Source: Escherichia phage 92CQ
Sequence record: PV682554.1
Direction: 5' to 3' (one strand)
DNA length: 64,000 nt
Under the pieces are notes generated by a model, which was not told where the DNA came from, ran no database searches, and worked only from the letters and a program-made list of their open reading frames with translations. Every line of letters begins with the position of its first letter. Position 1 is the first letter of the stretch. Position numbers and translations under genes: made by a program. This document shows positions 40,673 through 42,757 of this stretch, piece after piece.

Positions 40673-42757
40673 GTGGCAAGGAAACCTGTCAAACAATCTT
40701 TTGAAAATGTAGATATTGAAGTTAAAGCCCAACCTGGCAAACAAACACTAGCTATGGATCTTATGCCTGAAGTAATGATTTATGGTGGTGCGGCAGGTTG
40801 TGTTTCAGCAGAAACAGAATACTTAACAAGAGACGGTTGGAAACAAATAAGTGAATATGATGGTGAGGATATTTATCAATACAATCCAAGAAATAAACGT
40901 CTTGAATTAGTTACACCATCTTTTGTAGAATATGATGCTAAAGATAACCTGTATTGTATCACAAACGGAGTAGGTGTCTTCCAAGAATTAAGTATGGAAC
41001 ATCGCTTTGTTTTCTACAAGAAGAAAAAATCCAAAAAACATTTTGAAATTCTTGTTGGGGATCTTATTGCACTACAGCAAGCAGGACACCCATTACGAGG
41101 ATATATTGAAAATCCTTTTGGTAAACGTGTTCCGTTTAACATTCAAGGTAAACCTAGCACATACCTAAAAATTCATGAGGTAATGACAAGTGATGATAAG
41201 AAATATTGCTTTGAAACTCCAAGCAGTTATGTCGTGTTTAGACGTGGCGATCACATCTTCGTTACTGGGAATAGCGGCAAAAGCCGTCTGCTACTTCTAA
41301 AAGCACTTAAATACGCATATAAAGATCCACTGTTTGGTGGTATTCTTTTCCGTAAAAATACAACAGCTTTACGTAAATCTGGTGGTTTGTTTACTGAAGC
41401 TAAAAAACTTTATCTACCATTAAAGCCTCACGTAAGGGAACAGGCTATGGAGATGGAGTTCAGAGCTACAAAAGGTGGTACACTTAAATTTGACCATCTT
41501 GAAAATGATAACGTAACTGCTGAAACTAACCATCAAGGTACGCAGTATTCGATGGTGGGTTTTGACGAACTTACACATTTTACACAATATGAAATGCTGT
41601 ATCTGTTAGGGCGTATGCGTTCTGAATCAGAAACATCTTTTATGCTGTGTACTTGTAACCCTGATGCTGACAGTTGGGTGTTAAAGTGGGTACTTCCTTA
41701 TTTGGATGAAGCTGGTTATCCACGAGAAGATATGTGTGGCAAACAGCTATACTTTCTTATTGTGCAAGATGAACCAGTATTTGCTGAAACAGCAGAAGAG
41801 TTGAAAGAAAAGTATCCTGAAAACTGTTTTATGCAAAACCCAAACACAGGTGAAACAGTGGTTATTGAACCACAAACATTTGTGTTCATTGGTGGTACTA
41901 TCTTTGATAACCCTGAACTAATAAGACTTAACCCTAAATACTTAGCTTCTTTGAAGGCTCAAACTGCCGTTAAGAGAGCACAGCTTTTAGATGGTTGTTG
42001 GTTTGCTCGTGCACAAGAAGAGAGTTTCTTTAACAGAGAATGGTTACACGTTATCAAGTTTAAAGATTTACCAAACAATCTTAAATATATGCGAGCGTGG
42101 GATAAAGCAGTATCTGTTCCAACAGAATCTTATCGTTATCCTGACTACACAACATCTGTTAAAATGGCTAAAGACTCTGATGGAAATTATTACATTTTTG
42201 GTGATTATGATTATGATGCTCACGATGAAGGTAGTAAAATTTTTGGTAGATTCAGAAGACTACCAGGTGATCGAGATAATTTAATTCTAAACCAATGTAA
42301 GATTGATGGAGATGAAGTTACAGTTGTATTGCCAAAAGATCCTTCTGGTGCTGGTTTGATTGAATATACAGAATCAGCTAAAAAACTAATTGCTGAAGGG
42401 TTTGTTGTTAAACCAGATGCTATGCCTGGTAACAAGAAAAAATTACAACGCTTTATGCCATTTAGTAGTGCTTGTCAAAATGGTTTTGTTTATATTGTAG
42501 AAGAATCTTTCCCTAACAAAGAAACTCTTGATCATTTCTATAAAGAGATGGAGTCATTTAATGGAGAAAGATCTACAGCAACATTAAAAGATGATATTCC
42601 AGATGCTGCTGCATCTTGCTTTAATACTTTGTCAAAAGAACAGATGTTTAAAGCAGTAGCAATACCTTCTGCAACAAATGCATTAACAGGGTACGGTAAG
42701 ATGGGTGGAAGATCAAGAAACTCTTTATCTTCTCCATACAGTATCAGAGGAAGATAA
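40673..42757 (+). CDS. terminase large subunit, interrupted by a mini-intein
   Basis: GTG start after AGGAGGA; Walker A split as GGAAG|intein|SGKS, Walker B MVGFDELTHF, CTCNPD motif. Confidence 0.8.
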   Translation: MARKPVKQSFENVDIEVKAQPGKQTLAMDLMPEVMIYGGAAGCVSAETEYLTRDGWKQISEYDGEDIYQYNPRNKRLELVTPSFVEYDAKDNLYCITNGVGVFQELSMEHRFVFYKKKKSKKHFEILVGDLIALQQAGHPLRGYIENPFGKRVPFNIQGKPSTYLKIHEVMTSDDKKYCFETPSSYVVFRRGDHIFVTGNSGKSRLLLLKALKYAYKDPLFGGILFRKNTTALRKSGGLFTEAKKLYLPLKPHVREQAMEMEFRATKGGTLKFDHLENDNVTAETNHQGTQYSMVGFDELTHFTQYEMLYLLGRMRSESETSFMLCTCNPDADSWVLKWVLPYLDEAGYPREDMCGKQLYFLIVQDEPVFAETAEELKEKYPENCFMQNPNTGETVVIEPQTFVFIGGTIFDNPELIRLNPKYLASLKAQTAVKRAQLLDGCWFARAQEESFFNREWLHVIKFKDLPNNLKYMRAWDKAVSVPTESYRYPDYTTSVKMAKDSDGNYYIFGDYDYDAHDEGSKIFGRFRRLPGDRDNLILNQCKIDGDEVTVVLPKDPSGAGLIEYTESAKKLIAEGFVVKPDAMPGNKKKLQRFMPFSSACQNGFVYIVEESFPNKETLDHFYKEMESFNGERSTATLKDDIPDAAASCFNTLSKEQMFKAVAIPSATNALTGYGKMGGRSRNSLSSPYSIRGR
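40799..41272 (+). other. mini-intein (158 codons) inserted in the terminase P-loop
   Basis: Starts with Cys (CVSAETEYLTRDGWKQ), ends ...HIFVTGN, followed by Ser; removal restores GGAAGSGKS. Confidence 0.65.

Follow-up and report, generated by a model that had tools for sequence, protein, structure and literature searches.

An endonuclease-less mini-intein predicted within the Walker A motif of the large terminase of Escherichia phage 92CQ

Results

The DNA analysed here (the window) is a stretch of 64,000 nucleotides of Escherichia phage 92CQ (PV682554.1), in which terL, the gene of the large terminase (TerL), carries a candidate mini-intein. The terL open reading frame (ORF) extends over 40673..42757 on the plus strand, as do all features described below, and encodes a precursor of 694 amino acids (aa), followed by a stop codon, with matches to the Pfam models Terminase_6N and Terminase_6C. 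The precursor reads ...EVMIYGGAAG / CVSAETEYLTRDGWKQ ... GDHIFVTGN / SGKSRLLLLKAL and can be divided into an N-extein (aa 1-42, 40673..40798), the putative intein of 158 aa (precursor aa 43-200, 40799..41272) and a C-extein (aa 201-694, 41273..42754). The N-extein ends in the first half of the Walker A motif (G39-A-A-G42, 40787-40798), and the C-extein opens with the residue that follows the intein, Ser+1, and the second half of the same motif, S-G-K-S (41273-41284), so that the motif which is split is Walker A itself (G39-A-A-G42/S201-G-K-S204). Ser+1 is the fifth Walker A residue and lies two positions ahead of the catalytic Lys. The junction codons are TGT for Cys43 (40799-40801), AAT for Asn200 (41270-41272) and AGC for Ser201 (41273-41275). 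Walker B (MVGFDELTHF, aa 294-303, 41552-41581) and the C-motif (CTCNPD, aa 326-331, 41648-41665) are both located in the C-extein.

A whole-protein homologue search retrieved 1545 relatives of the precursor; the insert counts given here come from the 120 listed ones. Homologues of ~500-530 aa read IYGGAAG-SGKSRLLL without interruption (IYGGAAGSGKSRLLL; P0024-27, P0036 and others), while an insert sits at the identical point in 44 homologues among the matches listed, with discrete sizes of 146, 158-159, 246 and 301-328 aa. All 44 inserts have Cys as first residue and end in Gly-Asn, which is followed by Ser. After in-silico splicing, the 536-aa TerL aligns with its closest intein-free homologue at 63% identity and without gaps over the junction. 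The match to Terminase_6N, which on the precursor begins only at profile position 8 and residue 201 (61.7 bits), then covers profile positions 1-213 (68.6 bits), and that to Terminase_3 rises from 19.6 to 26.8 bits, now above the cut-off; Terminase_6C scores 20.7 bits on the spliced sequence, slightly under its cut-off of 22.6. With Walker A (GAAGSGKS), Walker B and the C-motif present, the spliced protein fits a Terminase_6-type TerL, in which an N-terminal ATPase is joined to a C-terminal RNaseH-like nuclease. These comparisons show the block to be an in-frame insertion at a conserved site of the host protein that is missing from colinear homologues. The original prediction, made from the letters of the window, had given the 158-codon block these exact coordinates and this length, had placed it within Walker A between a first Cys, a last Asn and a Ser at +1, and had assigned Walker B and the C-motif to the C-extein. 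Every one of these assignments held, the pattern lies far outside what chance would give, and the alignment to intein-free terminases that it had proposed confirmed the insertion point in the P-loop.

The insert was modelled by AlphaFold2 on its family alignment as an all-beta single domain (predicted local distance difference test score, pLDDT, 94.7; predicted template modelling score, pTM, 0.86). A Foldseek search of the PDB with this model returned ~50 intein and HINT structures, headed by 6zgq, the AceL NrdHF intein (E 1e-7, template modelling score 0.70), and followed by bacterial intein-like (BIL) domains, Prp8, DnaB, gp41-1 and Hedgehog; the match of the predicted fold to HINT is unambiguous. 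A single-sequence phmmer search of the PDB with the insert yielded noise only (e.g. WW domains), and the C-terminal lobe alone found no intein there; the crystallised 6zgq construct carries C124A/N146A, two of the few conserved residues being gone. A profile of the family alignment matched 6ZGQ at E 7.8e-10 and, more weakly, the PolII, DnaX and RecA inteins. In a pairwise alignment with the N lobe of 6zgq, the window intein scored z = 9 over shuffles, with S65, H68 and R69 in register.

With the 158-aa insert as query, a word-index search retrieved 5 proteins only, and HMMER, run exhaustively over 1.84 billion representatives, retrieved 734 at E <= 1e-3, most of which match in two stretches, the N lobe and the C lobe, ~170 aa apart. 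Residues were tallied over the 160 inteins that could be delimited in the best 150 of these 734 proteins. Cys1 (block A:1; 40799..40801), the candidate initiating nucleophile, is present in 160/160. The block B core, S65-M-E-H68-R69-F70 (40991..41008), supplies the S-x-x-H of the block with S65 and H68: Ser at B:7 (Ser/Thr in 153/158), His at B:10 (158/158 of those aligned), Arg at B:11 (102 inteins) and Phe at B:12, a position taken by V, M, I, F or L across the family. Cys137 in KYCFET (41207..41209), 21 residues before the terminal Asn, corresponds to F:4, where 159/160 family inteins have Cys. Block G ends in T156-G157-N158 (41264..41272), with Thr at G:5 (Thr/Ser in 159/160), Gly instead of His at G:6 (159/160) and Asn at G:7 (160/160). 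The +1 residue is Ser in 73, Cys in 47 and Thr in 40 inteins. In an alignment of 18 sequences, down to 23% identity, the invariant columns are C1, T6, E7, G13, W14, H68, D132, K135, Y136, C137, G157, N158 and S+1.

The motif LSMEHRF (aa 106-112), which had been put forward as a block B candidate, is borne out by the family-wide conservation of S65 and H68, and the penultimate Gly, which had been noted as a departure from the usual His, is genuine and a family-invariant feature rather than a defect. The calculated masses of the spliced TerL (60.8 kDa) and of the intein (18.4 kDa), out of a precursor of 79.2 kDa, agree with the estimates of ~60 and ~18 kDa made beforehand, and the single HINT domain of the model leaves no homing-endonuclease domain, as had been claimed. 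What that prediction missed is the near-invariant F:4 Cys, the kinship with a class 3 intein, and a large family that mostly targets P-loops.

The location G/[S/T/C]xK[S/T], i.e. a P-loop, is shared by 113/160 family inteins, and the remaining ones lie, by our reading of the sequences, in what seem to be other glycine-rich loops (e.g. GGGAF/SGKD and GVDIG/CG). Besides TerL, the hosts are RecD-like and ResIII/DEAD helicases (Pfam), and the median intein size is 316 aa. Four metagenomic polypeptides (P0130, P0138, P0181 and P0236) hold two family inteins each, at ...DGDTVS/CGAGVGTT and ...YDYC/CGFGGRML. The intein N lobe (aa 1-72) also matches, at 32-39% identity, genes of other phages: the terminase genes of the V5-like E. 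coli phages Av-05 and TH18, a recD-like gene of a Vibrio phage, and the RtcB/tRNA-ligase genes of the Bacillus phages BCP8-2 and JBP901. This implies that several cultured phages already carry members of the family, apparently without annotation. In a limited literature search we found no description of a family combining Cys1, Cys at F:4 and a T-G-N terminus.

At the same TerL site, the 301-328-aa inserts contain two LAGLIDADG-like motifs (LQVAVMADG ... EVxHWDGS) in their central domain. LAGLIDADG_3 of Pfam matched 5/8 of these sequences weakly and below threshold (best E 1.6e-4), and no other family matched the larger alleles; the AlphaFold2 model of the central domain (pLDDT 77) found I-DmoI and the PI-SceI endonuclease domain in Foldseek (E 5e-5, probability 1.0). 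Given these endonuclease-bearing sister alleles, the window element can be regarded as the endonuclease-less form of a homing intein. It is a mini-intein by its size of 158 aa, by the one HINT domain of its model and by the lack of endonuclease similarity in its central 54 aa, on which a hidden Markov model (HMM) of the large-allele endonuclease region scored -2.5 bits, below shuffled controls. The helix VGDLIALQQAG, which a MAFFT alignment hinted to be a remnant of the first LAGLIDADG motif, was rejected by this HMM score. Among 16 homologues whose insert measures 158/159 aa, the intein (55-92% identity) diverges in step with the exteins (68-90%), and this parallel divergence fits the vertical inheritance of a fixed element; judged on these sequences, the genera Justusliebigvirus and Phapecoctavirus have the mini form fixed and pass it on vertically.

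terL starts with GTG (40673-40675), 5 nt after an AGGAGG sequence. An out-of-frame ATG (40671-40673) overlaps this start codon, which is backed by the reading frame and used in the GenBank annotations of relatives. The gene is 99% identical at the DNA level to annotated large terminase genes of ~55 Escherichia phages of Justusliebigvirus (Stephanstirmvirinae, ~146-kb myophages), and the protein is 80-90% identical to its counterparts in Phapecoctavirus and related Klebsiella phages. The G+C content is 0.348 in the intein and 0.366 in the rest of terL. Within the window there is one copy of terL and one intein of this family; no second terminase or second family intein was found in it. Upstream, the gene is flanked by a pair of spanin genes and a run of 15 tRNA genes, and downstream by the portal gene. 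The tRNA genes (36204-38870; Rfam tRNA, 40-69 bits) lie ~2 kb upstream of terL; in the homologous region of phage ESCO13, tRNA-Pro, tRNA-Ile and tRNA-Met are found just upstream of terL. The two overlapping ORFs directly before terL, 39998-40429 and 40335-40664, match the i-spanin and o-spanin genes of JohannJBalmer in position and size, and the N-terminus of the second (MRKHLLALCLVLALMMTGC) resembles a lipoprotein signal with a lipobox Cys.

Discussion

We propose that 40799-41272 is a functional cis-splicing mini-intein without an endonuclease, located between Gly42 and Ser201 of TerL, and give this reading a probability of about 0.9. The insertion, the junction residues, the fold and the selection discussed below all support the mini-intein interpretation. 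The 79-kDa precursor, with its P-loop split by an 18-kDa HINT domain, would be unable to bind ATP. After translation, the intein would fold, join the two terminase halves via Ser+1 and free itself by cyclisation of Asn158, yielding active TerL (60.8 kDa) and the free intein (18.4 kDa). The reaction may begin with an N-S acyl shift at Cys1, activated by Ser65 and His68 of block B; the N-extein would then move to Ser+1, either directly or relayed via Cys137 (F:4). The cyclisation of Asn158 would be aided by Arg69 (B:11), replacing the absent penultimate His, and an O-N shift would finally yield the peptide bond. In AceL NrdHF, Arg at B:11 compensates for Gly at G:6, the R69A substitution slowing splicing and G145H killing it (PMC7891396), and a mycobacteriophage intein functions with Gly in the penultimate position (PMC5050341).

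That the block is excised and its flanks are ligated is inferred from the disruption of the P-loop, from selection and from phage viability. A P-loop split by an 18-kDa domain implies no ATPase, and since the identical insert is carried by plaque-forming phage isolates, excision with ligation is the sole reading compatible with viability. Compared with Phapecoctavirus ESCO13, the ratio of nonsynonymous to synonymous substitution rates (dN/dS) comes to 0.053 in the intein codons and 0.056 in the terminase (extein) codons, far below 1 in both, values that are only rough because synonymous sites are near saturation (proportion of synonymous differences, pS, ~0.67-0.70). The roughness of these ratios counts among the points that weigh against our proposal. 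The penultimate residue (G:6) is Gly157 in place of the His that is common, though not obligatory, in inteins, and the block F His is missing as well. Cys137, placed at F:4 and thus probably beside the scissile bond by its motif position, its spacing and the homology to 6zgq, competes with Cys1 as candidate initiator. Finally, the Hint/intein HMM search that the original prediction had suggested as a check came out divided: the curated models of Pfam and NCBIfam, including those for intein N- and C-termini, gave no match to the insert at E <= 10, nor did any intein model turn up when five related inserts and ten host proteins of the family were scanned with Pfam, while the family profile and the fold search did find intein structures. 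We attribute the failure of the curated models to a gap in library coverage and do not count it as evidence against an intein. Considering all of this, the window intein is real and almost certainly functional.

Which cysteine starts the reaction is a matter of finer judgement, the F:4 Cys and the class 3 kinship leaving either Cys1 or Cys137 as the initiating nucleophile. AceL NrdHF (PDB 6ZGQ; Hoffmann et al. 2020) is an atypical class 3 intein, split in nature, that comes from a phage-like contig of an Antarctic metagenome; it has S65, H68, R69, M70, C124, T144-G145-N146/S and Ala1 (PMC7891396). Its C124 (F:4), 22 residues before Asn, was shown to be the initiating nucleophile, hence its class, T144 supports H68, and R69 partly stands in for the missing penultimate His, G145H abolishing splicing (PMC7891396); with Ala1, the Cys at F:4 is the sole possible initiator there. 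In standard inteins F:4 is usually Asp, and it is Cys in the WCT inteins, which reside mostly in ATPase P-loops, including those of terminases, and three of which begin with Ser1 or Cys1 (Tori et al. 2010, PMC2807308). Of the class 3 features, the window intein has the F:4 Cys at a spacing (21) within the class 3 range of 20-22 residues before Asn, Thr156 at G:5 and Ser+1; its residue 1 is a nucleophilic Cys, and B:12 is Phe70 rather than Trp, which is also lacking in the proven class 3 AceL NrdHF (Met70). On account of Cys1 and the missing Trp we do not file it as class 3. One family intein lies at the same site as AceL NrdHF in an NrdF-like protein (P0228, residues 419-651; IIRDE/C...SPKHRM...VYGVEV...TGN/SIHGYY); it has Cys1 and Gly at F:4, its block B SPKHRM nearly equals the SPNHRM of AceL NrdHF, and the same protein holds another family intein upstream. 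Taken with AceL NrdHF (Ala1, Cys F:4), this means that both single-cysteine states occur naturally in the scaffold. The absolute conservation of Cys1 speaks for its use, which would mean a class 1 route, and the equally absolute conservation of the F:4 Cys speaks for its being more than a substitute for Asp. We hold Cys1-initiated splicing to be more likely than not, and give initiation by Cys137 or an obligatory relay a considerably smaller share. The sequences suggest that either cysteine may be able to start, or that the acyl group may be relayed from Cys1 via Cys137 to Ser+1. Only tentatively do we see this large, mostly phage-borne family as an intermediate between class 1 and class 3 with two candidate initiators, Cys1 and the F:4 Cys.

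The rival explanations differ in how far they depart from our proposal. The nearest one keeps the intein and lets it splice by a class 3-type mechanism, in which Cys137 would attack the Gly42-Cys43 bond to form a block F branched thioester from which the N-extein passes to Ser+1; Cys1 would then be superfluous, or would accept the acyl group first and pass it on to Cys137. We consider it rather unlikely, yet it has substance: F:4 Cys and Thr/Ser at G:5 occur in 159/160 inteins each and Ser/Thr at +1 in 113/160, the F:4 Cys is otherwise a WCT hallmark, WCT inteins with Cys1 or Ser1 are known (PMC2807308), and the nearest relative by structure and sequence, with a clear margin, is the proven class 3 AceL NrdHF with the same constellation. 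However, a dispensable Cys1 would not be expected in 160/160 family inteins and in all 44 TerL inserts, the intein has neither a non-nucleophilic first residue nor the Trp of B:12, P0228, with Cys1 and Gly at F:4, indicates that Cys1 alone may suffice, and the canonical class 3 structures 6riy and 6bs8 are no nearer to the model than class 1 inteins. The same two cysteines can also be read as a redox gate, a Cys1-Cys137 disulfide holding TerL inactive under oxidation and so coupling packaging to the redox state of the cell. Both are invariant, and in HINT active sites their positions lie on either side of the scissile bond; P-loop inteins have been argued to be possibly regulatory (Kelley et al., PMC5050341), and a DnaB helicase intein of Mycobacterium smegmatis is described as an oxidative stress sensor (PMC6195587), where we assume a role for the F:4 Cys. 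Such gating is improbable. The idea is purely inferential, conditions in the E. coli cytoplasm are reducing, the related AceL NrdHF needs no trigger to splice within minutes, and catalysis explains the conservation of both cysteines equally well.

The other two explanations deny protein splicing altogether. The insertion could be a dead or non-splicing HINT domain, either a decaying intein that is tolerated or a cleavage-only BIL-like domain, as the absence of a curated intein HMM match, of the penultimate His and of a homing endonuclease might suggest. We regard this as very improbable, since the split GxxxxGKS would abolish ATP binding, dN/dS in the insert is on par with TerL, and the catalytic positions are all invariant in homologues down to about 24% intein identity. 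The conserved Ser+1 is itself a Walker A residue that needs rejoining, and sets the insert apart from BIL domains (PMC4031507). Were the insert to cleave without ligating, an N-fragment of 42 aa and a C-fragment devoid of the P-loop would result; the window has a single terL, and the phages are viable. Removal of the block as a self-splicing intron at the RNA level has in its favour that related phages have introns, the table of the BASEL collection giving one intron in some; but the block is open in frame throughout, is under purifying selection at the protein level and has a confident HINT model, and no Rfam intron family matched anywhere in terL at gathering thresholds. We therefore rejected this explanation, its probability being negligible. 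A splicing mini-intein, probably initiated at Cys1, remains the reading that we prefer.

The GenBank labels for this gene in relatives are 'terminase large subunit', 'hypothetical protein' and 'large terminase with endonuclease', and in the public records and papers checked we found no annotation of the TerL intein of these phages. The curated intein HMMs do not cover the family, hence annotation pipelines miss it. EmilieFrey has an identical insert, yet its intein count in the BASEL table is 0. In the BASEL S5 table (PMC8594841), Bas60, Bas61 and Bas62 are credited with 2, 0 and 1 inteins and all three have the identical TerL insert, which implies that the TerL intein went uncounted and that Bas60 and Bas62 must have further inteins elsewhere. 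An intein in the DNA polymerase precursor of the related phage SD2 has been mentioned (PMC11841896), and according to a 2024 paper inteins were not reported in coliphages. Four 146-kb 'Campylobacter phage' records (MG065639, MG065645, MG065656 and MG065689; host C. jejuni) have a TerL intein with 100% identity to the one in the E. coli Justusliebigvirus phages, which suggests mislabelled hosts or contaminating coliphages.

The carriers are widely used, easily cultured E. coli phages of Justusliebigvirus and Phapecoctavirus, including members of the BASEL collection. A true TerL of 536 aa instead of 694 aa affects terminase phylogenies, structure modelling and the prediction of packaging type. 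An intein with Cys1 and Cys at F:4 in an essential gene offers a plaque-based assay for class 1 versus class 3 splicing, and the element, which is compact (158 aa), has Ser at its +1 junction and needs no His, is a candidate tool. If the family were indeed intermediate between the two classes, this would argue against an independent, protease-derived origin, and the idea could be tested in an E. coli phage amenable to genetics, in which the gene is essential and plaques serve as the read-out.

Terminase P-loop inteins, a penultimate Gly and mini-inteins have all been documented before (PMC5050341; PMC3556154). What is new here is an unannotated element, a G/SGKS insertion site unlike GK/T, and a Cys1, Cys-F:4 and T-G-N family whose only characterised relative is the atypical class 3 intein AceL NrdHF. 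A parallel is offered by the mycobacteriophage inteins TerL1-a and TerL1-b (Kelley et al. 2016, PMC5050341), which likewise occupy the P-loop of a large terminase, so that splicing is needed for an active motor. They were shown to splice efficiently; some of the phage inteins in that work have a penultimate residue other than His, including Gly, and in the RDF intein a Gly-to-His change at this position impaired splicing (PMC5050341). TerL1-a is inserted between Lys and Thr (GK/T) and TerL1-b one residue off, in contrast to the window site, two residues upstream of the Lys. Their hosts are Terminase_1-type proteins of actinophages and they mostly have an endonuclease, whereas the window intein, without one, resides in a Terminase_6-type protein of an E. 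coli myophage; no close sequence relationship between them is detectable.

Standard class 1 mini-inteins (Npu DnaB, gp41-1 and Ssp DnaB) normally have Asp at F:4 and His at G:6 and F:13, unlike the window intein. Canonical class 3 inteins (MP-Be DnaB, Msm and Mch DnaB-1) share with it the F:4 Cys, Thr at G:5 and Ser or Thr at +1 (PMC2807308; PMC7664689), and they are also phage-associated and favour the P-loops of helicase-like ATPases, including terminases; they differ in that residue 1 is no nucleophile, B:12 is Trp and G:6 is usually His, where the window intein has Cys1, Phe and Gly. AceL NrdHF comes nearest. It has S65 (B:7), H68 (B:10) and R69 (B:11) at the same numbering, a non-Trp hydrophobic residue at B:12, an F:4 Cys followed by x3-Pro and the C-terminal junction Thr-Gly-Asn/Ser, lacks the F:13 and G:6 His, and is of similar size (146 aa versus 158 aa). 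AceL NrdHF has Ala1, is encoded by two genes that a GIY-YIG gene separates and has NrdF as its host, while the window intein, at ~21% identity, has an invariant Cys1, is contiguous and resides in the P-loop of TerL.

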